A stretch of DNA of 64,000 bases, taken from positions 53,942-117,941 of the forward strand of contig JAFEAY010000010.1 in assembly GCA_018266175.1 (NCBI GenBank), in the 5' to 3' direction. Source of the DNA: Candidatus Babelota bacterium. GTDB taxonomy: Bacteria > Babelota > Babeliae > Babelales > RVW-14. Positions 4,042 through 53,755 of this stretch are shown piece after piece (within the stretch, counting starts at the first letter, position 1; each line of letters opens with the position of its first letter). A model generated the notes under the pieces. That model saw only the letters and a list, made by a program, of their open reading frames with translations, had not been told where the DNA came from and did no database searches. The translations under genes and the position numbers were made by a program.

Positions 4042-5364
4042 CTAAATCATCGATGCCGGCAGAAAAAGTATTTTATTCTTTTCATCAAATGAAAGAGGCC
4101 CCATGTAACAAAAAACACCCAGCGATGCCTGAGGTGTAGCGGCCATAAAGCTTTTCAGATTATTGAATTTTTTCGTTTCAATCTGAGAAGAATAAGTAAT
4201 TTCGAATGGAATAATTCGCCTTCCAAGCGCAACAACAAAATCAACCTCAGCTCCCCCAGCAGTTCGCCAAAAATGAATTTGATGATTTTCTGATTGAGTA
4301 TCAAGCCACGTTTGTAACTCGTTAAGAAACCAGGTTTCAAGTCGATGACCTATCAATGCGGTACTTTTCAAAACGGTAATCTCATGAATACCAGTCAAGT
4401 AACTGACCAATCCGTTGTTAATCAAATAGCCCTTTGGTGATTTCACTAACCGCTTGATAGAACTTCTGATGTAAGGAAATAATTCAGTGTATTGCAGTGT
4501 GGCAAGTAAGTAGTCTCGATATTTTGAAAGGGTAGCTCTTGAGCAATGCAAGGCATCCATAATTTTTTTATCATCTCGAACAGATCCAGTAATTTCGGCA
4601 CAAATTTTCATCAGATTTTGATACATATTTAAATCGCCGATTGAATCAATAGCGCGAATGTCTTTTTCTAAATAAGTCTGCAAATAATCACCTAAATATT
4701 TTAAGCGCAACGATTCCGTTGCTGCCGCTATGACTTCTGGAAGGCCACCCCATACCAGATGGTTGTGTAATGATTCCTGCAAAATATTTTGAAAAGGACT
4801 CATCTGTACCATAAAATCTTTCAACGCTTGCACATCTTTTTCAGAAAAAATAAGGTCAAAGACATGGTGCGGTGGTAATGAAATTCCCTCATGCAAAAAA
4901 TGTGTCGTTTCTCTGAGGTTAAACTCACGCAAATTTAAAAGCTCAACTCTACCCGCTAAAGATTCTGCAGTTAATTTATGTAAATTAAGATGCGCTGATC
5001 CAGTAAGAAGAAATTTTATAGAGTCTCTCCCTTTATGGGTATCGTATATAATCTTTATTTGATCAAATAAAGCAGGGCATTTTTGTGCTTCATCAATAAA
5101 AACCCAGAGCTTTTTTTGCCCTCCAATTTTTTGAAGTGCAGCCTGCTCAATCATCAACTCAAGCTCTTCGGCTATAACTCTGTTTCTTTGGCTGAGCACG
5201 TCCATGTTCAAGTGAACCCACTTCTTCTCAGGATTAAGGTTCATGTAATATTCAAGCAGTGTTGTTTTTCCAACACGACGGGGGCCCAAAAGGGCACTGA
5301 TGAACGGCCGCTCAAACGACTCAAAAAGGAAGGCTTCATTAGCTCTTACAATGTATTTCTTCAT
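4042..5364 (-). CDS. AAA+ ATPase of the DUF4143/COG1373 type
   Basis: Walker A LLGPRRVGKTTLLEYY near the N-terminus, and DEAQ Walker B. Overall similarity to the 52595..53755 paralog. Start moved to the internal Met (MKKYIVRANEAF). Confidence 0.75.
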   Translation of the reverse strand: MKKYIVRANEAFLFESFERPFISALLGPRRVGKTTLLEYYMNLNPEKKWVHLNMDVLSQRNRVIAEELELMIEQAALQKIGGQKKLWVFIDEAQKCPALFDQIKIIYDTHKGRDSIKFLLTGSAHLNLHKLTAESLAGRVELLNLREFNLRETTHFLHEGISLPPHHVFDLIFSEKDVQALKDFMVQMSPFQNILQESLHNHLVWGGLPEVIAAATESLRLKYLGDYLQTYLEKDIRAIDSIGDLNMYQNLMKICAEITGSVRDDKKIMDALHCSRATLSKYRDYLLATLQYTELFPYIRSSIKRLVKSPKGYLINNGLVSYLTGIHEITVLKSTALIGHRLETWFLNELQTWLDTQSENHQIHFWRTAGGAEVDFVVALGRRIIPFEITYSSQIETKKFNNLKSFMAATPQASLGVFCYMGPLSFDEKNKILFLPASMI

Positions 5365-5508
5365 TTTTAAACTCAAAATAACGCTTTTGCATGACAAAAT
5401 TAACACCTTAATGTTAAAATTGCGACGCAAAAGTGTCAAGGCATTGTGAAAAAATCCTTCGGCGGGAGAAATTGCCTGGATAGACTTTTTTGGTCTATCA
5501 ATGAAATT

Positions 5509-7685: not shown

Positions 7686-9872
7686 TTAATTACTCGGTTT
7701 ATATTTCTCAACAAACTTCTCTTGATTGGAATCAATCGATGGATGTCGGATTGTTCTGAGATAATCAATCGCTTGTCGTGGCGACATCCCGTGCCGTGCA
7801 ATCAACCACACCGCAAGCATTGTTCCAGTACGACTTTGGCCAAACTGACAATGAACAACCGCCCTTTTTTTTGTCTTATGCGCTTGGTCAACCGCTTGCA
7901 AAAATTCTTGAATTTGAGCAGGTTCTGGTGTATCGCCACTTGGAATATAAAGAAATTTATCAACAACACTTGTTTGACCTTGTTTGCCCAATGTACCAGG
8001 CCACCAAGCTTCGTTATTTAAATCTTTATTTAACGAAACTATCAAGCCAATCCCCAACCATTCAAGCATTTTTATATCACGAGTACTGGCTGGCTGCTGC
8101 ATGCCGGCAAGAAGCTGAGGTGCAACCCAGGAAAAATTTTGTGTTGCAAGCCTGAATGCAAGTACCGCATCAAGCGCATGAAAATCATGACCCTGCTCTC
8201 GTAAATAATTAAGCGCTTCAAGGCATTGATCTATAAAATGAGTATATTTAAGATCTTTTTGATAAAGATGATTAAATTCTCGCTCTTTTTGTTGGTTCGT
8301 AAATGGACAAACGTCATAAATAAATTGAGTTAACGTTGCTGGCAGCTGTACCGGCTTAAGGGCTTGATATGCTTTTTTAAACAGATCAAGCGTTGGTTGC
8401 CGAGTAATTAAATCATGCGCTTGGTTTGCAAAAAATTGCTCCGCAAGAGCTTGAGCGTCTGGAACTGTACCTAAGCTGAGTGGCACATACAAAGCAGACA
8501 AACTGGTTGCATTTGCTTTGGTCAGGGCATCACCACGCGTCAGGCTATAGCCACCAACACTATCAATTATTTTTTTAACTTGATCTTTTAAATCGATAAT
8601 ACTTCCTGCTGCCTGTAGGATCACCTTAAGCTCGGTGCTTGCACCAAGACCAAATCTCCCCCAGCTTCCACGACGGGCAAAAAAGTCAGCATGCTGCTCA
8701 ATCAGGTTCAGCAAACCCACCCACGTTACTTGGCTGAACGTTTCATACCGCTTGTCTTTGACTATTTTTTGTACAATATTTTGAATCAGCCCTCCGCGAA
8801 AACTGCTCACCGCGCAAACTTTTTTTACCGGATCTTGAGTAACATCTTGATCGTACACATCGAGTTCATGCTCAGTTAACGTTTTGTAATCAGGGATAAC
8901 GACTTCGTCAGGGGTTTTGGCAAAGTCTATTGGTGATGGCGTATGACAGGCTTTAAAATAAAAAAGATCGGCTTGTGCTGCGTACTCTGGTTTTTGGAAA
9001 AATCGCTTGATGATTTCAAAAACTTTTTGCCAATCATTATTCCCGTCATCACTGGCCTTAATCACATCAAGGGCTTTTGTTAAAAAAAAGTTCGGGCGTT
9101 GACCATTCAGTGAACTATCCAAAATATAGCCTTTTAAACGCTCCACCAAGTTTGTATCTTTTATGATTTTTTTGAGTGCATCAAAAGCTTCACCGCTTTT
9201 TTTCATCACTGGACCCGCAACTATTTTTTCTTTGCCAGCAGAATCCGTAACTTTTTGTGTAAGACCTCCCGTTGCTTGAGCAAGTAATAAAGTAATTTTG
9301 GCCAGAACATCAAGCTGGGAGCTGTACCACTGATTCTCTTGAAATGGCCAAGCAAAGGTAACACCGTTATGGTCGATGCTCATAACCGCGCCACTTACAT
9401 CCATCAGTGCTGCAATCATCTGCGCATAGTCGGCAACTTTTTCCCAACGAGCATATTCGTTAGGGCCTGAATAGTGAATGGTAATGACGCCTTGCTTGGC
9501 AGCTCGATTGTGCTTAAATTCAAGCGTTGCTTGAGTTCCAGGCGTTAACTGATAGGTAATAGTTTGAGAAAATTCACCGGTTGTATCATCAAAAACATCG
9601 GAAGCTAGAGTAACCGTAACACCATCAACTTTAAGGTTAATAAACTTTTTAATGTTACTTGCAACAAAATAAGGAGCTTTGCCTTGATTCAAATTTTCGT
9701 AAATAGAGATTAGACCATTTTGAAGCGCTTGCAGCTTGTGCTTGAGGCTTGTCAAAGAGGCATGCAGATCTGCAAGCTTTGTAGGAAGGTCATCGGCAGC
9801 AGTCAGCGTGGGGCTGCATGCAAGGGTTATAAGAAAGAGTGTGGTGAGAACAGACTCATAGAGCTTGGCCAT
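7686..9872 (-). CDS. Secreted effector-like protein with a C-terminal dual-specificity (Cys-based) protein phosphatase domain
   Basis: Signal peptide followed by the shared module LHASLTSLKHKLQALQNGL. C-terminal motif VHCQFGQSRTG (CX5R P-loop) with an upstream Asp. NEYARWEKVADY module shared with the 90..3845 protein. Start set at MAKLYES, which has an AGGAGA ribosome-binding site. Confidence 0.65.
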   Translation of the reverse strand: MAKLYESVLTTLFLITLACSPTLTAADDLPTKLADLHASLTSLKHKLQALQNGLISIYENLNQGKAPYFVASNIKKFINLKVDGVTVTLASDVFDDTTGEFSQTITYQLTPGTQATLEFKHNRAAKQGVITIHYSGPNEYARWEKVADYAQMIAALMDVSGAVMSIDHNGVTFAWPFQENQWYSSQLDVLAKITLLLAQATGGLTQKVTDSAGKEKIVAGPVMKKSGEAFDALKKIIKDTNLVERLKGYILDSSLNGQRPNFFLTKALDVIKASDDGNNDWQKVFEIIKRFFQKPEYAAQADLFYFKACHTPSPIDFAKTPDEVVIPDYKTLTEHELDVYDQDVTQDPVKKVCAVSSFRGGLIQNIVQKIVKDKRYETFSQVTWVGLLNLIEQHADFFARRGSWGRFGLGASTELKVILQAAGSIIDLKDQVKKIIDSVGGYSLTRGDALTKANATSLSALYVPLSLGTVPDAQALAEQFFANQAHDLITRQPTLDLFKKAYQALKPVQLPATLTQFIYDVCPFTNQQKEREFNHLYQKDLKYTHFIDQCLEALNYLREQGHDFHALDAVLAFRLATQNFSWVAPQLLAGMQQPASTRDIKMLEWLGIGLIVSLNKDLNNEAWWPGTLGKQGQTSVVDKFLYIPSGDTPEPAQIQEFLQAVDQAHKTKKRAVVHCQFGQSRTGTMLAVWLIARHGMSPRQAIDYLRTIRHPSIDSNQEKFVEKYKPSN

Positions 9873-9975
9873 GATTTTAGCGTCTCCTGTTTTTATTGTT
9901 ACTAACATTTTATAAAAACATAGATCCAGGTAGCCACGCAAGATTCTAGCTGTATTCGTTTTCTTGAGCGGTTAA

Positions 9976-22371: not shown

Positions 22372-22398
22372 TCTTTCTCAGTAAAATGAGTGGTCTGG

Positions 22399-22425
22399 AG
22401 GCTGGCTTTACCGCCAGCCTTTTTG
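22399..22425 (+). terminator. Rho-independent terminator/attenuator between the KH gene and trmD
   Basis: aggctggc-tttacc-gccagcct followed by ttttt. Lies upstream of the true trmD ATG. Confidence 0.55.
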
Positions 22426-22449
22426 CACTTTAACCCAAATAGCTTTGCC

Positions 22450-23850
22450 ATGAAAATTTCGATTATTTCTGTCTTTCCCGAATTTCACCAATCAATCAAT
22501 GCACTCAGTATTATTGGTAAGGCCGTACAACAAGGGCTTGTTTCATTTGATTTCATTAGATTTTCAGATCTATGCGAGCCAAAAGAACGGATTGATGAGC
22601 CAACTTGTGGGCCTGGAGCTGGAATGATCTTGAAGCCTGTGGTTGTTCAAAAAGCAATTGAACTTGCTGAGCAACGATGGGGACAAGGCTTTAAAGTTTT
22701 CTTCTCACCTCATGGCACTGTTTTGACACAGCCAATTTTGCGACAATATGCTGCGCAGTTTTTTGCACAATCTAATCAGCCCGCTCTCTCTGGGTATCCC
22801 GTCGAAGCTTTAGCGAAGACGGATGTATCGAAGGGTATGAGCGTAAATCACCTTATCTTGGTCTGTGGCCGCTACGAGGGAATCGATGAACGTGTTGAGC
22901 GACACTACGCCGATGCGCTCATCTCAATTGGTGATTATGTTTTGATGGGTGGCGACTTGCCTGCTCAAGTATTTCTTGAAGGACTTTTAAGGCTGTTACC
23001 TGGTGTTATTGGCAACCAAGAATCGGTTGAACAAGAATCGTTTGAAAGCGCATTTCTTGATCACCCACACTACGGATTACCGGCGGAATGGAATGGCATG
23101 AAAATTCCTGATGTCCTACGATCAGGGAATCATGCAGCAATCGACGCGTGGCGAAAAGATGCTGCGGCCAAGCGAACGGTACACAATCGCTTTGATTGGT
23201 TTGTGCGTGCCCAACCAAACCCTCCAAGCATTGCGCTTGCCAAAAAATTCATTCCTGTGCACTATGTTGCAGTAATGCATACCCAGGTAATCATTAAAGG
23301 TGGAACTGTTGGACAAACTTCAATTCCTTCAATTGATATCCATGACATCGCACGCGCTTGTGCATCGTACGGCATTAAAAACTTCTTCATCGTCAGTCCA
23401 TTACTTGATCAACAAAAAATTGTTGCCACATTTATGGAATTTTGGCTTTCTGCTGACGGTGCAAAATACAATGAAAACAGGCATCAGGCTATTTCAAGTA
23501 TAAGACCCGTTTTGTCGTACCAGGAAATGATTGATCTGATTGTCCGAGAAGAAGGGCAAGAACCACTGATTGTGTGCACATCGGCTCGAAATGTTGAACA
23601 CAAACAACACATCGATTATTTCAGCCAGAAAATTGTCTGGTCACAAGAAAAACCTGTTCTTTTCTTGTTTGGAACAGGACAAGGACTCAGTGATGAACTT
23701 GTTCAAAAAAGTGATTTTGTACTTGCTCCAATTGAAGGGCTAACCGATTACAACCACTTATCGGTACGATCCGCAGTATCCATAATCCTTGACCGGTGGC
23801 TTGGACTTTCGCCCCGTCTTGGTTCAAGCAAGAAAGCCCCTGTAAGTTAA
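22450..23850 (+). CDS. trmD: tRNA (guanine37-N1)-methyltransferase TrmD fused in frame to a C-terminal SpoU/TrmH-like SPOUT methyltransferase domain
   Basis: N-terminal ~270 aa: CGRYEGIDERV, GDYVLMGGDLPAQVFLEGLLRLLPGVIG, SGNHAAIDAWR (TrmD). C-terminal ~210 aa: IHDIARACASYGIKNFFIV, LFLFGTGQGLSDEL, APIEGLTDYNHLSVRSAVSIILDRW (SpoU-class motifs). Confidence 0.8.
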   Translation: MKISIISVFPEFHQSINALSIIGKAVQQGLVSFDFIRFSDLCEPKERIDEPTCGPGAGMILKPVVVQKAIELAEQRWGQGFKVFFSPHGTVLTQPILRQYAAQFFAQSNQPALSGYPVEALAKTDVSKGMSVNHLILVCGRYEGIDERVERHYADALISIGDYVLMGGDLPAQVFLEGLLRLLPGVIGNQESVEQESFESAFLDHPHYGLPAEWNGMKIPDVLRSGNHAAIDAWRKDAAAKRTVHNRFDWFVRAQPNPPSIALAKKFIPVHYVAVMHTQVIIKGGTVGQTSIPSIDIHDIARACASYGIKNFFIVSPLLDQQKIVATFMEFWLSADGAKYNENRHQAISSIRPVLSYQEMIDLIVREEGQEPLIVCTSARNVEHKQHIDYFSQKIVWSQEKPVLFLFGTGQGLSDELVQKSDFVLAPIEGLTDYNHLSVRSAVSIILDRWLGLSPRLGSSKKAPVS

Positions 23851-29656: not shown

Positions 29657-30055
29657 TCAAGAAGGAATACGAACGAGCTTCATCAAAATATTTAAAACCT
29701 TTCCCGCTGCAGTTATCGCATCAAGAGCCTCGCTTTGATCGATAGAAAATTGATCATCAGGATAACGAGTACGCATCTCGTAAGGACTTAGATAATCGAT
29801 ATATTTTTCAAGTACCATTAAATGCTGATCATACTTTTTGCACTCTTCTAAGAGTCCTTCTAAGTCATGAGTTTTTGGAATTTTTTGATGTTGATACACC
29901 AAAAACGCTTTTAATGCTTTCTCTGCACACTGATGAGCATGATAAGCTACTATACCCAATATTTCATTATCATTCTCTTCATCACCGGCAACTAGCTTCT
30001 GCGCTGCCCTTAAATCACCTCGTGCTTTTATAATCCAATCTCTATGCCCTGGCAT
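29657..30055 (-). CDS. hepT: HEPN-domain protein (toxin component of an MNT-HEPN module)
   Basis: IVAYHAHQCAEKALKAFLV HEPN signature. Overlaps the upstream NTase gene by 14 nt. Confidence 0.8.
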   Translation of the reverse strand: MPGHRDWIIKARGDLRAAQKLVAGDEENDNEILGIVAYHAHQCAEKALKAFLVYQHQKIPKTHDLEGLLEECKKYDQHLMVLEKYIDYLSPYEMRTRYPDDQFSIDQSEALDAITAAGKVLNILMKLVRIPS

Positions 30056-30383
30056 ATAAGCACTTTCCTTCTTTGTTTACATAATAGGGAAGCGTTGCAA
30101 TCTCATTAATGCGTTCTGCAAATTCATCTTTGGTATATACTGCTAAGTCTTTGTATATCCCCAAACCTCGTAACGCTGCATAACCAGCTCTTACTCTTGC
30201 ATGACTTCTCTCTTCGGAGCTCTCAACGACTACAAGAAGATCAAGGTCACTATCTTCGCGTTGATCTCCACGGGCATAAGAACCAAAAAGATATATCTCT
30301 AGCGGATCATAGGTACGTACTAAACGCCTTACTACTTCTTCAATAATTTCCGGTGTAATCATACTATCCTCACAGCGTAACAT
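30042..30383 (-). CDS. mntA: Minimal nucleotidyltransferase (MNT), antitoxin/AMPylase partner of the HEPN protein
   Basis: LFGSYARGDQREDSDLDLLVVV nucleotidyltransferase motif (GS-x9-13-DxD). Confidence 0.8.
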   Translation of the reverse strand: MLRCEDSMITPEIIEEVVRRLVRTYDPLEIYLFGSYARGDQREDSDLDLLVVVESSEERSHARVRAGYAALRGLGIYKDLAVYTKDEFAERINEIATLPYYVNKEGKCLYARA

Positions 30384-30430
30384 TCCCAACCTGATTAATT
30401 TCTTTTGTTGCGTTAAAAATTCTATTTCAT
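30378..30430. repeat. 53-bp perfect direct repeat, copy 2 (mntA 5' region)
   Basis: Identical to 29582..29634, including the first codons (TTG-GGA-ATG-TTA). Confidence 0.9.
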
Positions 30431-31069: not shown

Positions 31070-31867
31070 TTATTGGGTAGTTGTAACATCAATTCCAATA
31101 CCTTGTGCATACTCAATTTGTTCTGTTATTAATTCAAGCAAACTTCGATTATCGACCGGGGTCGCATTTACAGAATGATCATGAGCATTCAACTGAATGG
31201 TTGGCAATTCAAACCCAATATTTATTGCATGCTCAATTTGCTGCTCTAGTTCGTTTTGCAATCTGGTATTAAGCAAATATTCTCCGCGAAGAATCGTCCA
31301 TGGTTGACCGCTCTTAGATTGCCCTTGAACAGATAAACTTTCTTGATTTAAACTTGATGAAACTTGTGTTGATTCTGCAGAATTTTGCTGAGTATTATTA
31401 AGATTTTCATGGTGTGATAATGCTGCACCACCAGATTTTTTTACATTGCCCTGAGTTTCTTGAGAAGGAAAAAAGCCATTCCATTTGAGCATATTACCAA
31501 GCTGGTATACCAAATAAAACAAACCTATCGCCACACCCGCTGCAAGGGCAATTTGCCCTACAAAAAGATAATTACTCCACCGGGCTTCAGCATTTTTTTG
31601 CCTATAAAATTCTTCTGATTCTTTACTGCCCATCATAATATTTATGATATCGCTCCGTGAATATCGTTCATTCAAAAGGTCATAAATTTTAACACCAAGC
31701 TCATGAACTTTCTCAGGATCTTCATGACTGCAATTCAGGCTTGCGATAATTTCAGCAACTACATGTGTATATTCATCAACGCTCTGTGCAGACAGGGTTG
31801 AATTATCAGCCGTAACAATAAAATACGTCAAAGAAAGAAGGAGATATTTTTTAAGATATACTTTCAT
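31070..31867 (-). CDS. Secreted/membrane hypothetical protein
   Basis: Signal peptide MKVYLKKYLLLSLTYFIVTA. One TM helix (IALAAGVAIGLFYLVYQL). Start chosen to avoid overlap with the upstream gene. Confidence 0.45.
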   Translation of the reverse strand: MKVYLKKYLLLSLTYFIVTADNSTLSAQSVDEYTHVVAEIIASLNCSHEDPEKVHELGVKIYDLLNERYSRSDIINIMMGSKESEEFYRQKNAEARWSNYLFVGQIALAAGVAIGLFYLVYQLGNMLKWNGFFPSQETQGNVKKSGGAALSHHENLNNTQQNSAESTQVSSSLNQESLSVQGQSKSGQPWTILRGEYLLNTRLQNELEQQIEHAINIGFELPTIQLNAHDHSVNATPVDNRSLLELITEQIEYAQGIGIDVTTTQ

Positions 31868-31878
31868 TTTATTACCCT

Positions 31879-33501
31879 TCATGCAGCTATGCGAGCCAAA
31901 TCTCTGGCCCACTGAACTCGTACTTTTTCCCACAGCTCTGCCTGCTGTAAACTTTTCATTGCTTGATCAAGTGCAGTTTGCGCAATTTCACCCGTAAGCT
32001 GCTTAGGCTCCTGTCGGCGAGCTTGCACAACCATTTCTTGCGCAATAAATTTAATCGCTCGTGGGCAAACACCTTCAAGAAGGTCCGCATAGATTGAAAG
32101 ATTTTCTAAGACATCTTGATGCAGGTCAACAACTGCTTCACTATTTTCTTGTGCAAATTTTTCAAGGTATGATGCAAGAATTTTTTCTCGCTCCGCCTTT
32201 TCTGGCAACGTAAACTCAATATTCATACCAATGCGATCTATAATTGCATCATCAAGTTTAAAGGGATGATTGGTTGCAAAAATAAACATTAAGTTTTTTT
32301 GTGATTTTTCCGGAACGAGTGCCAGAAATGTATTAATAAAATCTTGAATGCCTTGGGATGTTGTAGGAAGCTTTCGATTTGCAAACAATGATTCAGCTTC
32401 ATCAATAAAGACGATCAACCCTTTTTCTGAATTTTTTGCCCAATCTAAAAGCTTGCGGAATTCACTATTTGCAAGATTTAGATCGGTAATTTTTGCAAAT
32501 TCTGAACCAGAGGTTAATGCATAGTCAATATCTAAATAATAGGCCAGCTCCTTGGCAAATGCAGTTTTTCCCGTTCCTGAAGCACCAAAAAAAAGAACAT
32601 TGGGGAGATTTTCGTTATACATTTTTGCAAATTGTACGCGCAGTACAAGATCAAAAAGTTGCTTATGCAATTCTGGAGTAAAAATTAAATCCTTAAGACA
32701 ACTCACGCGCGGGGGCTTACTCCATCCAAACCAACCCTTTTTTGAGGTTTCACTGATGACCTTTGGTTGTGTAAAATAATTCATTACCAGAGGAATACCA
32801 TACTGAGCAGCATAGACACCTAAAGCAATTGCTGTTACGGCAATAACAATTTTTATTATACGCTTTGGACTATCTATCATCTTTTGAATTGTATTCCATT
32901 TTATTTTTTCAACATCTGTAGCAGCTTGAGCCTTAATCTTTTCTTCTTGCTCAAAAATACCCAACCGCTGTTTTTCATGAATCTCTGCTCTTTGAAGTTG
33001 AATTCTGGTTTCACGATCAAACTCATTATGAATCCGTGCATCGTTTGCCCGTACAGCTTCATTTCGTATAACCTCTTGAGCTAAAGCATCTTTTAGACGA
33101 TTAAATTCAGTTTCCAAAGTTGCCGTCGCAGTCTGTGCATACTGTCTCATTTGTGCATGCAACTCTCGAGATTCCTCAATTTGAGTTGCTACTTGATTTG
33201 CTTGCGCCAATGCCTGAGTTGATACCTGAAACGCTTCAATTGATTTATCATTTGAGTGATGAGCAAGTGCAATAGACTGATTTAATCTTACAATGCCATT
33301 ATTAACAACCTCACGAAGGTAATTTGCTCGTTGCGTTACAGCTTCCACTTGCTGGAGAGCTTCGCCTACAGTTGTTGCTTGTCCTCGAACTTGAGACCTC
33401 TGAGGCTGCATTGATATAAGAGGTAATACATTAAAAAGATTGATGATCAAAAATAGATAAAATTGGTTTTTTTTCATCATGAACATCACTCCCCCCCACA
33501 A
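31879..33501 (-). CDS. ATAD3-like membrane-anchored AAA+ ATPase (coiled coil, TM helix, AAA domain)
   Basis: Blocks NVLFFGASGTGKTAFAKELAYYLDIDYALTSGSEFA, GLIVFIDEAESLF and NLMFIFATNHPFKLDDAIIDRIGMNIEFTLPEKAEREKIL align well with eukaryotic ATAD3 ([20 protein letters not shown]..., GLLLFVDEADAF, NQPEQFDWAINDRI...FDLPGQEERERL). N-terminal coiled coil plus TM as in ATAD3. Confidence 0.8.
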   Translation of the reverse strand: MWGGVMFMMKKNQFYLFLIINLFNVLPLISMQPQRSQVRGQATTVGEALQQVEAVTQRANYLREVVNNGIVRLNQSIALAHHSNDKSIEAFQVSTQALAQANQVATQIEESRELHAQMRQYAQTATATLETEFNRLKDALAQEVIRNEAVRANDARIHNEFDRETRIQLQRAEIHEKQRLGIFEQEEKIKAQAATDVEKIKWNTIQKMIDSPKRIIKIVIAVTAIALGVYAAQYGIPLVMNYFTQPKVISETSKKGWFGWSKPPRVSCLKDLIFTPELHKQLFDLVLRVQFAKMYNENLPNVLFFGASGTGKTAFAKELAYYLDIDYALTSGSEFAKITDLNLANSEFRKLLDWAKNSEKGLIVFIDEAESLFANRKLPTTSQGIQDFINTFLALVPEKSQKNLMFIFATNHPFKLDDAIIDRIGMNIEFTLPEKAEREKILASYLEKFAQENSEAVVDLHQDVLENLSIYADLLEGVCPRAIKFIAQEMVVQARRQEPKQLTGEIAQTALDQAMKSLQQAELWEKVRVQWARDLARIAA

Positions 33502-33700
33502 CTATAAAAACAAAATAGAAATTCATTATGATTATTATATTTAAAAAAATAAACTTATTGCAATTAATTAGATATCGTATTCAATAAAACTTTATATAAA
33601 AAAAGGCAACCTCTAGTTTTTTTCAGATTTATTCATTACTTTTGTTCCTAGAGATAGAAAAACAGCCAAAATATAACTATGTTAAAGGAGCTCTAGAGCC

Positions 33701-37799: not shown

Positions 37800-38687
37800 T
37801 TACGTAACTTTTAATTTTTTAAAAACATTGTCCCATCCATTTTTTCCCCTGGTATGCTGAGCAACTGCTTGATGAACATCTTTGATAAAGAAATGTTTTA
37901 CGTTTTTAATATTCCAAGCTCTTTTAAATTCTGGAGTATCATTCATAACAACCAAGGTATACTTGATCTTAGGAAACTTTTTTTGAATAAGATTATTAAG
38001 CTTAATCGCCTCTTGTTTTTTAATTTTTGTTCGAAAAAAATAAATATGTTTCCCAAGCTTCAAAGCGCGATAAAAACGATCAATACGACGATAGTACTTA
38101 TCTCTCACTTGCTCATAATCATAGAGCGGCGTACTATCATTTTTAAAATCGTGAATGAAATTAATTCTATAACCTTTATCAAAAACTCCGTGATTCACTA
38201 AGGGCAAAGCACGCGGTGTAACAACAAGATTTTCTAATTTTAAAAAATCTTTAAAATCGCTTTTTAATGCCTTATAAATCGAAGAGAATTCTGAAATAGC
38301 CCAATCAAATGGAAAAAATGCCTCAGTAATTTTATTTTTCTCAAAATTAATAGCAGGCCCACAATTCATACCCAAGCTTATAAAAATACTATTTTTTTTG
38401 AACTCGGCTTTATTCTCTTTTTCTGCGTTAAGCCAAAGAGGAGCTCGCATCGCATCATGATCACGAAGCTTTTCTAATTCATGGTAGAGTTGGCCAACTT
38501 CAATATCTTCGCGCTCAGACATAAAAACTGCAGAATCATCAAGTATATTTTTTGTATCCTGATTTGAATAAACAGGCACCATAAAGCTACACCATAAAAG
38601 GGTAGTACTCAGGAGCAAGCTTACATTTTTCTTGGGCAAGTATAATGACATCTCAAAGTCCTTTCTCTCGGTCTTACAAATACTCAT
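37800..38687 (-). CDS. Secreted protein, paralog A of a GxNC / HDF-motif family (possibly the DUF1796 putative papain-like peptidase family)
   Basis: IFISLGMNCGPAINFEKNKITEAFFPFDW, FIHDF and YDYEQVRDKYYRRIDRFYRAL are shared, with about 50% identity, with 47509..48420. Confidence 0.6.
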   Translation of the reverse strand: MSICKTERKDFEMSLYLPKKNVSLLLSTTLLWCSFMVPVYSNQDTKNILDDSAVFMSEREDIEVGQLYHELEKLRDHDAMRAPLWLNAEKENKAEFKKNSIFISLGMNCGPAINFEKNKITEAFFPFDWAISEFSSIYKALKSDFKDFLKLENLVVTPRALPLVNHGVFDKGYRINFIHDFKNDSTPLYDYEQVRDKYYRRIDRFYRALKLGKHIYFFRTKIKKQEAIKLNNLIQKKFPKIKYTLVVMNDTPEFKRAWNIKNVKHFFIKDVHQAVAQHTRGKNGWDNVFKKLKVT

Positions 38688-41320: not shown

Positions 41321-42673
41321 ATGTTCGATTACATTTTAATTGCTTGTGCGCTCTTTGCACTCTTCATTTTTTTCACGTTCTTCTTCCTTGCAAGCTGTTA
41401 TAAACGCTGTTCATCGAACAAAATTTTAGCAGTTTACGGAAAGATAGCCGGTGAGCGATCGGTTAAATGTTACCACGGTGGTGGTGCGTTTATTTGGCCA
41501 CTCATTCAAGATTATTCATTCCTTGATTTGACACCAATGACATTGCACATTCCACTCAAGTCTGCGTTGTCTCAACAGAACATCCGTATCAACGTACCAA
41601 GTACCTTTACGGTTGCTATTGATACAACACCAGAAGCGATGAATAATGCTGCTGTTCGCTTGCTTTCGCTTTCACGCAAAGATATCGAACTCATGGCATC
41701 TGAAATCATCATCGGTCAATTACGCTTGACCGTTGCCTCATTGATGATTGAAGAAATTAACCAAGATCGCGAACGCTTCTTGCTTGAAATCAGAAATCAT
41801 ATCGAATCTGAGCTCAAGAAAATTGGACTCATGCTCTTGAACGTTAACATAACCGATATCACCGATGAGTCTGGTTACATCGAAAGCATTGGTCGCAAGT
41901 CGGTTGCAACAGCGCTTAATCAAGCAAAAATTGATGTCGCAAATCAAGAAAAAACTGGTGAAATTGGTCGAGCAGAAGCTGAGCAAGAACGAAGAACGCA
42001 AGTTGCCAACTATAATGCACAAGCTGTTGAAGGTGAAAACGAAGCAAAAGCAAAAATTGCAAGTGTTAATGCAGCATTGCTTGAACAAGAAGCTGAAGCG
42101 GCACAACGAGGTCAAATTGCGCAACAAAATGCGTATGCTCAAATTAACAAAGCAAAAAGCTTAGCTGAACTACAACGCCTTGAAGCTGAAGAAATTGTAC
42201 CCAAAGAAATCCAGCGTCGCATCATTGAAATTGCAGCTGCTGCAGATGCAGCTAAGCAACGCTTAGAAGCAGAAGGTAAAGCTGCTGCAATATTACAAGT
42301 CAAAGAAGCAGAAGCAGAAGGTATCCGTAAAGTTCTTACCGCTCAAGCTGACGGTTACAAATTATTGGTACAAGCATGCGGGAATAACAGTCAAGATGCT
42401 GCAACTATGCTCATGATTGAAAAGCTCCAAGAGATTGCAAAAATCCAGGCTGAAGCAATCAAAAATCTTAAGATTGATAAGATTACCGTTTGGGATAGCG
42501 GCTCTTCTGAAAAAGGAAGTTCAACCGCTCACTTTGTAAGCAGCATGGTAAAGTCATTACCGCCGCTGCATGAAATTGCTGCGATGTCAGGCATTAATTT
42601 GCCAGCTTATTTGGGCGATTTAAACAACCCAAATAATTCATCTAATACATTGAACAAAACAAATATCCAATAA
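41321..42673 (+). CDS. SPFH/band-7 flotillin-like protein (YqiK/FloT type)
   Basis: N-terminal TM. SPFH domain. Long EA-rich coiled coil (EAEAEGIRK). Confidence 0.85.
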   Translation: MFDYILIACALFALFIFFTFFFLASCYKRCSSNKILAVYGKIAGERSVKCYHGGGAFIWPLIQDYSFLDLTPMTLHIPLKSALSQQNIRINVPSTFTVAIDTTPEAMNNAAVRLLSLSRKDIELMASEIIIGQLRLTVASLMIEEINQDRERFLLEIRNHIESELKKIGLMLLNVNITDITDESGYIESIGRKSVATALNQAKIDVANQEKTGEIGRAEAEQERRTQVANYNAQAVEGENEAKAKIASVNAALLEQEAEAAQRGQIAQQNAYAQINKAKSLAELQRLEAEEIVPKEIQRRIIEIAAAADAAKQRLEAEGKAAAILQVKEAEAEGIRKVLTAQADGYKLLVQACGNNSQDAATMLMIEKLQEIAKIQAEAIKNLKIDKITVWDSGSSEKGSSTAHFVSSMVKSLPPLHEIAAMSGINLPAYLGDLNNPNNSSNTLNKTNIQ

Positions 42674-47421: not shown

Positions 47422-47508
47422 TAGCTTCGAATATAATCACTTTCTTGAGATTGCATCATCTTGTTATCTATGCTTATGATTTCACTAGGCATCATACAAG
47501 AGGTATTA

Positions 47509-48420
47509 ATGAAGCTATTACAACTTTATAAAAAAGTTATCCACTGTTTACTTGGGGCTCTTTTTCTTGTAAACCCTATTTTTCCGGCTCAAGAAGAACA
47601 GAACAAAGACCTTTTCAACAACAAATTCAGCAACCATGTTACTGTTTTAAATAATGAGTACCATGCACTTGAAATATTACGGGAAGAAGAAAGTTCTCCA
47701 GTTCTTGAATGGCACAATACAGAACGGGAAAATCAGCTTGGTCTGACTAAACCAATAATTTTTATTAGCCTTGGAGCAAACTGCGCTCCTGCTCGACATT
47801 TTGAAAGAAACCATCTCACTGAAGCCTTTTTCCCTTTTGATTGGTGCATTTCAGAAGTTGAATCAGTGTACAAAGCGTTGGAAGAAGATTTTCATGGCTA
47901 TCTCAAACAAGAAAACTTAAAAATTTTTGAACTTGCGCCAAATGTAACACATCGCACCTTTCGCGATACATACTACAAAATAATTTATCCGCATGATTTT
48001 AGTCGAGATAAAGAACCATTGCATGATTATGAACAAATCAGAAACAAATATTATCGTCGTATTGATCGATTCTATCGAGCACTTTCTCTTGGTAAAAAGG
48101 TTTATTTTTTCAGAACCGGGATAACAAAAGAAGAAGCAAAAAAGCTTAATGCCCTTATAAGAAACAAATTCCCAAACCTGAATTACACTTTAATTGTTAT
48201 CAGTGACACTGAGGATTTTAAAAAACAATGGAAAATCAAGCGGCTAAGAAATTTTTTCATACAGGGCTTTCAAGACGCCACAATTTTGAATCGTAAACTT
48301 TTGCAAGACTGGGATGCCGTTTTTCAAAATCTCAAGATCATTCCAAAACCACAACAAAAAAAGCGTGGACTAACCCATTTACAACAAAGGAGAAGGATTT
48401 CTCGCTTGAATCAGTGCTAA
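47509..48420 (+). CDS. Secreted protein, paralog B of the GxNC / HDF-motif family
   Basis: IIFISLGANCAPARHFERNHLTEAFFPFDW, IIYPHDF and HDYEQIRNKYYRRIDRFYRAL. Signal peptide from the internal ATG. Confidence 0.6.
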   Translation: MKLLQLYKKVIHCLLGALFLVNPIFPAQEEQNKDLFNNKFSNHVTVLNNEYHALEILREEESSPVLEWHNTERENQLGLTKPIIFISLGANCAPARHFERNHLTEAFFPFDWCISEVESVYKALEEDFHGYLKQENLKIFELAPNVTHRTFRDTYYKIIYPHDFSRDKEPLHDYEQIRNKYYRRIDRFYRALSLGKKVYFFRTGITKEEAKKLNALIRNKFPNLNYTLIVISDTEDFKKQWKIKRLRNFFIQGFQDATILNRKLLQDWDAVFQNLKIIPKPQQKKRGLTHLQQRRRISRLNQC

Positions 48421-52594: not shown

Positions 52595-53755
52595 TCATGA
52601 AGATAATGGAGCATTGGGACAAATTATTTTAAGAAAATCTTCGCATGGCAGACAAAGCACATTATTCTTCAGCAACCGCTCCTTGCCTCGATAAAGCAAA
52701 ATAACTTTTGCCTCGGGATAATCTTCTTGAAATTCGACAAGAGATTTAAGATCTTCAGAGCGTATCTTTTCAGCATTTTTAACTTCTATTGCCCAAAAAC
52801 CAAGTGCCCCAAAAACAACAAAATCGACTTCAAGACCCGATCTTGTACGCCAAAAGCTTATCTCATGTTTTTCAGATGTATAATCTTTCCATGCCATGAG
52901 ATGCTGCAGAACAAGCCCCTCCAGACCAGCACCATTAACTTCTGATTCGCTATCTTTTATAGACCTTGGTCGCAATGCACGATAAACACCCACATCAAAA
53001 AGATAAAATTTAGGATGTGCACTTAACTCTCGCTTAGCTCTCTGGGTAAAAACATTAATCTGATAACAAATGAGAAGGTCTTCTAAAATAGAAATCCAGT
53101 CACTTACGGTGGTTCGTTTTACATGACATTCACGAGCAATGTTTGTGATATTCAAAATAGATCCATGTGAAAGACTCATAATATGAAGAAATCGAGTAAA
53201 CGATTCGTAATGACGAATCAACCCCTCCATCTTGACCTCTTCTTCTAGATAAAGACTGATATAAGCTTGAAGCGTTTCAAGTGCATCTTCATGAGCAAAA
53301 CGAAGAGGAAGAAGTCCATAAGATAAAGCTTGCTCAAGATTAAAATGCTGCTTAAGCTCAGATGCCATAAATGGATGTAGTACCTTTCTTAATGCACGAC
53401 CTCCAAGCAAATCTACGCCCTGCCGCTTGAGCTTTCGCGCGCTAGAACCGGTAAGAATGAATCTCCATTTGCGCTTCTTTTCAATGAGCATATGAACAAT
53501 AGAAAGGAGCTCTGGAATCTTTTGAATTTCATCGATAATGATAGTAGCACCATCTGGCTGTGCACTTACAAGTTCAGTAAGATGATCTGGATTTGCTGAA
53601 AGTCGATAGCGAACATCGGCAAGGCGTAAATCGATTAAAAGAGCATCAGGATTGTTTTTCACGGTCATGGTCGATTTTCCAGTACCCCGAGGTCCGAAGA
53701 GAAAATAGCTCTGTTCTGGTTCCTTAAAAGCTCTTTTTATATACTTAAAATCCAT
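52595..53755 (-). CDS. AAA+ ATPase of the DUF4143/COG1373 type, paralog 2
   Basis: FLFGPRGTGKSTM Walker A and IIDEIQK Walker B. Similar to 4042..5364. Confidence 0.75.
   Translation of the reverse strand: MDFKYIKRAFKEPEQSYFLFGPRGTGKSTMTVKNNPDALLIDLRLADVRYRLSANPDHLTELVSAQPDGATIIIDEIQKIPELLSIVHMLIEKKRKWRFILTGSSARKLKRQGVDLLGGRALRKVLHPFMASELKQHFNLEQALSYGLLPLRFAHEDALETLQAYISLYLEEEVKMEGLIRHYESFTRFLHIMSLSHGSILNITNIARECHVKRTTVSDWISILEDLLICYQINVFTQRAKRELSAHPKFYLFDVGVYRALRPRSIKDSESEVNGAGLEGLVLQHLMAWKDYTSEKHEISFWRTRSGLEVDFVVFGALGFWAIEVKNAEKIRSEDLKSLVEFQEDYPEAKVILLYRGKERLLKNNVLCLPCEDFLKIICPNAPLSS

Follow-up and report, generated by a model that had tools for sequence, protein, structure and literature searches.

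The window analyzed here comprises 64,000 nucleotides from a Candidatus Babelota bacterium (assembly GCA_018266175.1, contig JAFEAY010000010.1, positions 53,942 to 117,941 of the forward strand) and carries an operon of two genes, one encoding an AAA ATPase, which will be referred to as the ATPase, and the other a small membrane protein (Table 1). An original prediction, made from the letters alone, had described the ATPase as ATAD3-like and closer to ATAD3 than to generic AAA proteins. This was borne out by BLASTP, hhalign, hidden Markov model (HMM) scores and shared motifs. As judged from its sequence, the ATPase is native to a Dependentiae (TM6) bacterium and a member of the ATAD3 branch of the classical AAA ATPases, in other words a true bacterial relative of the ATAD3 family with the same domain order.

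The ATPase gene and its operon

The ATPase gene is preceded by an AT-rich intergenic region of 200 bp. The promoter-like site within this region is regarded as tentative, as such matches were not enriched in the scanned region (16 compared to 13.7 expected). The open reading frame (ORF) begins with TTG; however, translation more probably starts at ATG 33480 or ATG 33486. The former is the start of P0001, a protein of 533 amino acids deposited at NCBI as an AAA family ATPase of a Candidatus Dependentiae bacterium, which is 100% identical over 99% of the ORF length. With respect to composition, the GC content of the gene (0.386) and that of the window (0.389) are nearly the same, and its codon-usage divergence ranks 8th among 14 ORFs of similar size. 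Since both measures match the window, the gene bears no compositional sign of recent import, and the comparison of codon usage that the original prediction had proposed did not reveal a foreign signature. A tblastn search of the window with the whole protein returned the gene itself only, without a second copy or any other match.

On the Dependentiae contig, the operon is flanked by genes for ClpB, Ffh, MnmE, TrmD and Kup, and the remaining window is ordinary bacterial DNA, including the genes for these proteins (TrmD as a fusion), a thymidylate synthase, an ABC transporter and a GntR regulator. Eukaryotic contamination was ruled out, since the flanking genes are bacterial and the gene is part of an operon. 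Unlike the nuclear-encoded ATAD3 of eukaryotes, the ATPase gene is located in a bacterial operon, with a Shine-Dalgarno-like sequence and native composition.

The originally predicted architecture, an N-terminal coiled coil followed by one transmembrane (TM) helix and a C-terminal AAA domain, was supported by AlphaFold2, hydropathy and a 3.5-residue periodicity, whereas a signal-like N-terminus had been missed. The AlphaFold2 model of P0001, with a mean predicted local distance difference test (pLDDT) value of 84.5, shows an uninterrupted helix from residue 39 to 172 (P0001 numbering), a second helix (176-203), a helix that includes the TM segment (205-237), the AAA fold with its lid and finally a long C-terminal helix (497-532). 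At 0.15 nm per residue, the first of these helices would be approximately 20 nm long. The coiled-coil region contains no proline and three glycines in 170 residues. Fourier analysis of the long helix yielded a hydrophobicity period of exactly 3.5 residues, as in a heptad, and not the 3.6 residues of a plain amphipathic helix. The observed power at 3.5 was reached by 1 out of 1000 shuffles of the query and by none out of 1000 for the family column means, and the heptad register is kept from about residue 39 to 136. The Fourier test was used in place of an earlier, crude heptad test on hydrophobic a/d positions, which was uninformative (z = 0.37).

One strong hydrophobic segment, residues 213-237, aligns to the TM helix of ATAD3A. 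Signal-like N-termini, counted by a simple hydropathy criterion, were present in 81 out of 111 full-length members of the query family and in 61 out of 78 more distant representatives, but in none of the 109 ATAD3 sequences from vertebrates. The predicted signal peptides of the query and of P0251, P0252, P0270, P0333, P0334, P0338 and others very often end with (F/L/Y)(G/A/S)-M before Q, E or N, examples being LISM before QPQ, CLGM before EP and LFGM before QQ. A methionine at position -1 would be unusual for signal peptidase I and may reflect a lineage-specific cleavage or sorting motif.

The second gene of the operon had been proposed as a possible partner located upstream of the ATPase gene. 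It is indeed co-oriented and, in view of its conserved synteny, likely encodes a partner of the ATPase, but it is located downstream. Its start is separated from the stop codon of the ATPase gene by 11 nt, and this gap includes a separate Shine-Dalgarno-like sequence (AGGG). Using tblastn, a weakly similar gene (E < 0.01) was detected directly 3′ of the ATPase gene in 12 other loci. Inspection of the ORFs in Dependentiae contigs and the window revealed a protein of the same design (190-380 amino acids) within a few bases 3′ of the ATPase in 20 out of 29 close family copies, window included, often overlapping the ATPase gene. This design consists of a signal peptide, a small helical domain in the periplasm that contains IYDLL...DEI repeats, an SEEFYAxKN motif, a single TM helix, a GFxPG motif, a low-complexity stretch and two C-terminal EQIxYA(K/Q)xIG(L/I) motifs. 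In the window, the predicted parts of the partner are a signal peptide, a helical domain of small size in the periplasm, a TM helix at residues 99-125, a Q/S/N-rich stretch and two EQIxYAxxIG motifs; no match to Pfam or NCBIfam was obtained for this protein. The pair of C-terminal motifs, located in the predicted cytoplasmic tail and conserved between loci, is a candidate short linear docking motif for the ATPase.

Table 1. Features of the ATPase operon, followed by further genes of the window (position 1 is the first letter of the window)
Feature	Position	Strand	Remarks
ATAD3-like AAA ATPase gene	31879..33501	minus	from the ORF list; 540 amino acids from the TTG start; stop TGA 31879-31881
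Promoter-like site TTGCAA-18-TATAAT	33534..33563	minus	10/12 consensus matches; consensus match only
Shine-Dalgarno-like purine-rich run GGGGGGGAG	33489..33497	minus	precedes ATG 33486 and ATG 33480; read from the sequence
Predicted Sec-type signal peptide MMKKNQFYLFLIINLFNVLPLISM, followed by Q	33409..33480	minus	hydropathy peak at residues 13-32
Predicted periplasmic coiled coil	32965..33366	minus	single 134-residue helix, residues 39-172 of P0001, pLDDT 74-90
Predicted single TM helix IVIAVTAIALGVYAAQYGIPLVMNY	32776..32850	minus	hydropathy; GVYxA motif; followed by the linker P-K-V-I-S-E-T-S
AAA ATPase core	32209..32598	minus	PF00004; catalytic motifs all intact
Lid subdomain and long C-terminal helix	31882..32208	minus	sensor-2 R481 ("PRA") and conserved Trp in the helix, both ATAD3-like
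Gene of the likely partner, a 265-amino-acid membrane protein	31070..31867	minus	same operon; one TM helix
EQIxYA(K/Q)xIG(L/I) motif pair	31070..31270	minus	C-terminal part of the likely partner
Overlapping small ORFs	29657..30389	minus	132 and 115 amino acids
TrmD fusion	22390..23850	plus	second domain PF09936
Protein with C-terminal dual-specificity phosphatase domain	7686..9941	minus	751 amino acids; PTP-SAK/DSPc
SPFH/Band-7 protein	41321..42673	plus	450 amino acids
DUF1796 papain-like peptidase	37800..38687	minus	one of two paralogues
DUF1796 papain-like peptidase	47461..48420	plus	one of two paralogues
AAA_14/DUF4143 ATPase	4042..5439	minus
AAA_14/DUF4143 ATPase	52595..53755	minus

Similarity to ATAD3 and the bacterial family

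Comparison of the ATPase with human-type ATAD3A by BLASTP yielded 139 bits (E = 2e-39) and 29% identity over 333 amino acids, from the TM helix to the C-terminus; the human-type sequence was validated by its 99% identity to ATAD3A of Pan troglodytes. This value for the aligned region is similar to the 29.6% in a global alignment between the human protein and PfATAD3, which is accepted as the Plasmodium ATAD3 homologue (PMC13249166, 2026). An alignment of 59 sequences of the bacterial family was compared by hhalign with a second one of ATAD3 sequences from animals and green algae and their unnamed relatives, resulting in a probability of 100% (E = 1.2e-56) over 320 columns from the TM helix to the C-terminal helix. 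The family HMM, which spans the TM helix to the C-terminus, separated ATAD3 from other AAA proteins. Pan ATAD3A and Arabidopsis ATAD3 scored 194.6 and 195.3 bits over nearly the whole model, whereas E. coli FtsH (63.9 bits) and unrelated multi-AAA proteins (67-88 bits) matched in the ATPase core only. On the basis of these comparisons, the closest relatives of the ATPase outside its own family are the eukaryotic ATAD3 proteins. The original prediction would have been refuted by a place in a widespread bacterial AAA clade combined with an ATAD3 similarity no higher than that to FtsH, p97 or spastin. Only the first half of this applies, as the clade proved to be widespread and bacterial, but the similarity to ATAD3 is about three times that to FtsH or p97.

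General domain and structure databases returned generic AAA matches. The Pfam scan identified the AAA domain PF00004 only (residues 302-431, E = 7.4e-21), and the NCBIfam matches to CdvC, PAN, FtsH and CDC48 were far below threshold (FtsH 41.9 bits compared to a cut-off of 600). The top matches of a PDB sequence search were CDC48/p97 with approximately 44 bits per domain; those of a PDB fold search were proteasomal Rpt subunits, FtsH/FtsHi and p97, all generic AAA folds at 18-25% identity. No structure of an ATAD3 AAA domain is present in the PDB to match against.

The query and its family, ATAD3A and FtsH were compared in one multiple alignment (Table 2), in which the features listed, including an arginine at sensor 2, are common to the query and ATAD3 but not to FtsH. 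Walker A (G306-T313 with K312), Walker B (D367/E368), the sensor-1 residue N411 and the arginine finger R423 are intact in the ATPase, and K312, D367/E368, N411 and R423 represent invariant columns across the 59 family members; judged by these motifs, the ATPase is catalytically intact. Walker A reads GASGTGKT in the query compared to GPPGTGKT in ATAD3. At the TM junction, ALGVYAAQ...QPKVISETS of the query aligns with AVGVYSAK...KPSLVRETS of ATAD3A, and a deletion of two residues in the second region of homology is common to the query and ATAD3 but does not occur in FtsH.

Table 2. Motifs in the multiple alignment
Region	Query	ATAD3A	FtsH
TM-helix motif	GVYxA(Q) (query and family)	GVYxA(K)	absent
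Linker after the TM helix	QPKVISETS	KPSLVRETS	absent
Motif after Walker A	DYALTSG	DYAIMTG	FFTISG
Pore loop 1, aromatic-hydrophobic-Gly	absent (query and family)	absent	MFVG
Motif before Walker B	LLDWA	LFDWA	MFEQA
Second region of homology	AIIDRI	AINDRI	ALLRPGRFD, two residues longer
Sensor 2	PRA (family SPR)	SGR	SGA

The domain order of ATAD3, coiled coil, single TM helix, AAA domain and C-terminal helix, equals that of the query. In ATAD3A the ATPase is located in the matrix, the TM helix in the inner membrane, and the coiled coil points towards the outer membrane (PMC13249166). The predicted orientation of the bacterial protein is equivalent, with the ATPase on the matrix or cytoplasm side and the coiled coil between two membranes. 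Nevertheless, vertebrate ATAD3 lacks the cleavable-looking Sec signal peptide of the query. Furthermore, unlike ATAD3, the query is bacterial and encoded in an operon with a membrane partner gene, and its family is multi-copy with three tandem copies in one locus.

A word-indexed search detected more than 100 clusters at 42-80% identity, those with names being assigned to Candidatus Dependentiae, Babeliales or TM6. In an exhaustive phmmer search of 1.84 billion representatives, 139 matched with E ≤ 1e-30. By summed score, the top phmmer matches included P0259, P0261, P0265, P0273, P0296 and P0348, proteins of 1,500-2,350 amino acids with five to six tandem classical AAA domains; these multi-AAA proteins were used as tree outgroups only. 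Scanning one genome per bacterial or archaeal species yielded 34 loci. The 28 closest are found in bins labelled Dependentiae, Babeliales, TM6 or generic, apart from one short contig labelled Parachlamydiales, and weaker loci occur in bins labelled Oligoflexales and Parachlamydiaceae. Three of the 34 loci, from Spirochaetia, Opitutales and Metamycoplasmataceae, were rejected as generic AAA proteins that do not belong to the family. Several bins contain two to three copies, which are mostly dispersed. In locus L006 (3594..8961), three ATAD3-like genes (635, 603 and 507 amino acids) are arranged in tandem without a partner gene between them.

Other bacterial ATAD3-like subfamilies (such as those of P0270, P0294, P0276, P0305, P0334 and P0324) show the signal peptide, helical region, TM helix and AAA domain of the query. 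P0270 and P0294 share 35-36% identity with animal and plant ATAD3, compared to 27-29% for the query, and one protein in the cluster of P0276 bears the name Candidatus Babeliales. Inspection of the gene neighbourhoods of five more distant relatives demonstrated that four are clearly bacterial, with (1) RNase P, L34, an ATP/ADP translocase and a PBP, (2) L19 and the TrmD fusion of the window, (3) NusA, IF2 and an ankyrin protein, and (4) S1, NDK, NusB and EF-P. The fifth, the contig carrying P0294 (L037), was uninformative on origin. No relatives of P0294 were observed in viral contigs by a scan that finds close relatives only, so that homologues in giant viruses could escape it. The TrmD fusion, in which TrmD (a tRNA m1G methyltransferase) is joined to a second S-adenosylmethionine-dependent RNA methyltransferase domain, also occurs in locus L038 (13691..14343) next to a distant ATAD3-like gene, which suggests that L038 is likewise derived from a Dependentiae bacterium.

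Phylogenetic trees were calculated by neighbour joining from 313-318 columns with 100-200 bootstrap replicates, using FtsH and the multi-AAA proteins as outgroups. The algal sequences P0375 and P0379 entered one tree as fragments, which did not affect the clades cited here. The query was placed in an all-bacterial clade (99-100% bootstrap) apart from the eukaryotes, and ATAD3 of animals and green plants formed a separate clade (74.5% bootstrap). With backbone bootstrap values below 10-40% and ingroup support of 32-56%, the trees order neither the eukaryote clade relative to the dozen or so bacterial subfamilies nor the root. Pairwise identity is 42% between animal and plant ATAD3 and 26-40% among the bacterial subfamilies.

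Several further genes of the window deserve mention. The two overlapping small ORFs have, from their translations alone, the look of a nucleotidyltransferase/HEPN toxin-antitoxin pair, and homologues with 54% and 33% identity are located approximately 2.4 kb downstream of the ATAD3-like gene in locus L007. The protein with a C-terminal dual-specificity phosphatase domain, whose N-terminal 600 amino acids yielded no family match, is a possible host-directed effector. Approximately 8 kb from the ATPase operon, the window encodes an SPFH/Band-7 protein of the prohibitin/stomatin superfamily, another membrane-scaffold family with members in the mitochondrial inner membrane. In addition, the window encodes a pair of paralogous papain-like peptidases (DUF1796) and a pair of AAA_14/DUF4143 ATPases.

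Proposed envelope function, origin and rival explanations

The explanation we favour, at somewhat better than even chances, is that the ATPase represents a native oligomeric inner-membrane ATPase organizing or bridging the cell envelope together with its operon partner. The predicted Sec signal peptide would export the N-terminal heptad coiled coil of approximately 20 nm into the periplasm, and the single TM helix would stop the transfer. The AAA domain would face the cytoplasm, as it needs ATP, which is located there. Homology, motifs, domain order, family size and synteny were observed directly, signal peptide, topology and coiled coil are predicted from the sequence, and we infer oligomerization, contact with the outer membrane, envelope bridging and partner binding. 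The ATPase is presumably co-transcribed with a membrane protein of equal predicted orientation, a candidate adaptor or substrate, and might oligomerize in the inner membrane by analogy to other classical AAA proteins. By means of its stalk of periplasmic length and its partner, the ATPase would then organize the cell envelope or bridge it from inner to outer membrane, rather than acting as a substrate-threading unfoldase. Scaffolding or remodelling is favoured over unfolding because ATAD3 and the bacterial family both lack the aromatic pore loop of threading unfoldases. In published images of a Dependentiae cell, periplasmic material is visible between the inner and the outer membrane (PMC6561590), a gap that a stalk of about 20 nm might plausibly span.

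Several points weigh against this explanation. Signal-peptide cleavage, topology and oligomerization are predictions, and no partner gene adjoins the ATPase gene in the more distant bacterial subfamilies. Concerning the N-terminal half, the hhalign alignment did not extend into the coiled coil, and PF12037 (ATAD3_N) did not match the query in Pfam even at E values up to 1. Across the 59 aligned members, PF12037 does not rank with the 25 most frequently matched families, so that at most three members match it. The N-terminal architecture common to ATAD3 and the query could thus be partly convergent. Nevertheless, four relatives at 44-55% identity exceeded the 25-bit cut-off for PF12037, P0086, P0089 and P0119 over approximately 200 profile positions and P0096 over approximately 115, and P0270 and P0294 match above cut-off only at the TM-proximal end (model positions 219-265). 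Homology of the N-terminal half to ATAD3 is therefore plausible for the family, the query itself being without a detectable match. These assignments are taken from Pfam scans, which replaced a home-made ATAD3_N HMM; the latter, derived from 12 vertebrate sequences and a single alga, proved too narrow for labelling the bacterial proteins. In addition, the function of ATAD3 itself is unsettled, and the statement that the ATPase works like ATAD3 predicts little. Finally, Dependentiae secrete many proteins with Sec signals and at least one species remodels host mitochondria (PMC6561590), so that export of the ATPase past the bacterial envelope is conceivable.

The main rival explanation, which is that of the original prediction, takes up this last point. 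Accordingly, the ATPase would be a host-derived mimic that is exported as an effector into mitochondrial membranes or contact sites of the host, where it manipulates mitochondria. The ATPase is a real ATAD3 homologue with a signal-like N-terminus, and Dependentiae live as obligate parasites inside protist cells. One of them, Chromulinavorax destructans, wraps the mitochondrion of its host and causes it to expand, possesses the Sec system with signal peptides in 44% of its coding sequences, and was searched by its authors for proteins manipulating mitochondria (PMC6561590). However, a signal peptide in combination with a stop-transfer TM helix predicts retention in the inner membrane with the ATPase facing the bacterial cytoplasm, and no mitochondrial targeting feature was identified in the ATPase. 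The family is multi-copy, deeply diverged within the phylum and of native composition, which is more in line with a housekeeping component of the envelope than with a mimic tracking its host, and the gene is operon-linked to another predicted bacterial membrane protein. Targeting of host mitochondria is disfavoured by the predicted topology, and we consider the effector role unlikely. A second rival, that the gene was recently acquired from the present protist host, whatever its function, is largely excluded and would be very surprising. In intracellular bacteria, eukaryote-like genes are usually transferred from host to parasite, and the nearest relatives outside the bacterial family are eukaryotic. 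Yet GC content and codon usage are indistinguishable from those of neighbouring genes, the identity to animal and plant ATAD3 (27-29%) is well below the 42% between animals and plants, the query clade is all-bacterial (99% bootstrap) and lies outside the eukaryote clade, and the synteny with the bacterial partner gene is kept across many genome bins. Of the original suggestion that a bacterial copy indicates acquisition from a host, the relationship to ATAD3 was upheld, but the copy is neither lone nor recent, with more than 100 clusters, two to three paralogues per bin and a clade of its own. Any transfer of the gene would be ancient and not a recent capture from a host, because the family is large, its clade is all-bacterial and the gene resembles the window in GC content and codon usage.

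According to a third rival, the ATPase would be a bacterial AAA protein, either generic or derived from FtsH, whose protease domain was lost and whose resemblance to ATAD3 is convergent. FtsH, FtsHi and the Ycf2 motor are likewise classical AAA proteins that are anchored in the membrane and have their N-terminal part outside the cytoplasm, and the predicted layout of the ATPase (hydrophobic N-terminus, periplasmic domain, TM helix and AAA domain) resembles that of FtsH. The top structural matches (Rpt subunits, FtsH/FtsHi and p97) and the weak, sub-threshold NCBIfam matches to CdvC, PAN and FtsH point in the same direction, but the PDB holds no ATAD3 AAA domain that could have matched. Scored with the same HMM, FtsH reaches 64 bits in the AAA core only compared to approximately 195 bits for ATAD3, about three times less. 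FtsH contains an M41 peptidase domain and an aromatic pore loop, whereas the query lacks both; no M41 domain was found by Pfam, and the protein stops after the lid and C-terminal helix. Moreover, sensor 2 and the second region of homology of FtsH are unlike those of the query, and the two-residue deletion as well as the motifs outside the AAA core are shared with ATAD3 specifically. As a family assignment this explanation is refuted, and we give it hardly any credence. That the ATAD3 branch as a whole goes back to an FtsH-like ancestor is possible and compatible with the native envelope ATPase favoured here.

With regard to the origin of ATAD3 itself, the protein might not be a eukaryotic invention but descend from a bacterial envelope-spanning ATPase, an intracellular bacterium similar to Dependentiae having donated the gene to an early eukaryote. 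This proposal is speculative, and the odds are against it. It is compatible with the data because the bacterial radiation, with 26-40% identity between subfamilies compared to 42%, is deeper than the split between animals and plants, and because the eukaryotes form one clade among many bacterial subfamilies in trees that fix neither backbone nor root.

Significance of the bacterial family

In the literature searched, ATAD3 is treated as restricted to eukaryotes, and the 2026 paper on Plasmodium ATAD3 contains no word starting with "bacteria" or "prokaryot" (PMC13249166). Our literature search did not yield any paper linking ATAD3 with Dependentiae/TM6 or with bacterial homologues, and no co-occurrence of "TM6" with ATAD3 fell under any Dependentiae term. 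Automatic annotation already notes the similarity, as the Joint Genome Institute (JGI) uses the names ATAD3A/B and a few relatives, including P0270 and P0294, carry precomputed PF12037 matches. The bare similarity is thus latent in databases; what is new is the scale and age of the bacterial family, the predicted Sec-dependent topology mirroring that of mitochondria, and the conserved partner gene.

These findings raise the new question of which domain of life invented ATAD3, a protein that is essential in animals and Plasmodium and linked to human disease and whose mechanism is poorly understood. The bacterial family represents an outgroup for the evolution of ATAD3, bearing on donor, recipient and date of the gene. 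Its intronless proteins with an operon partner may provide easier structural and biochemical material for the mechanism of ATAD3. For the Dependentiae, parasites with almost no characterized cell biology, the ATPase is a candidate component of the envelope or of the host interface.

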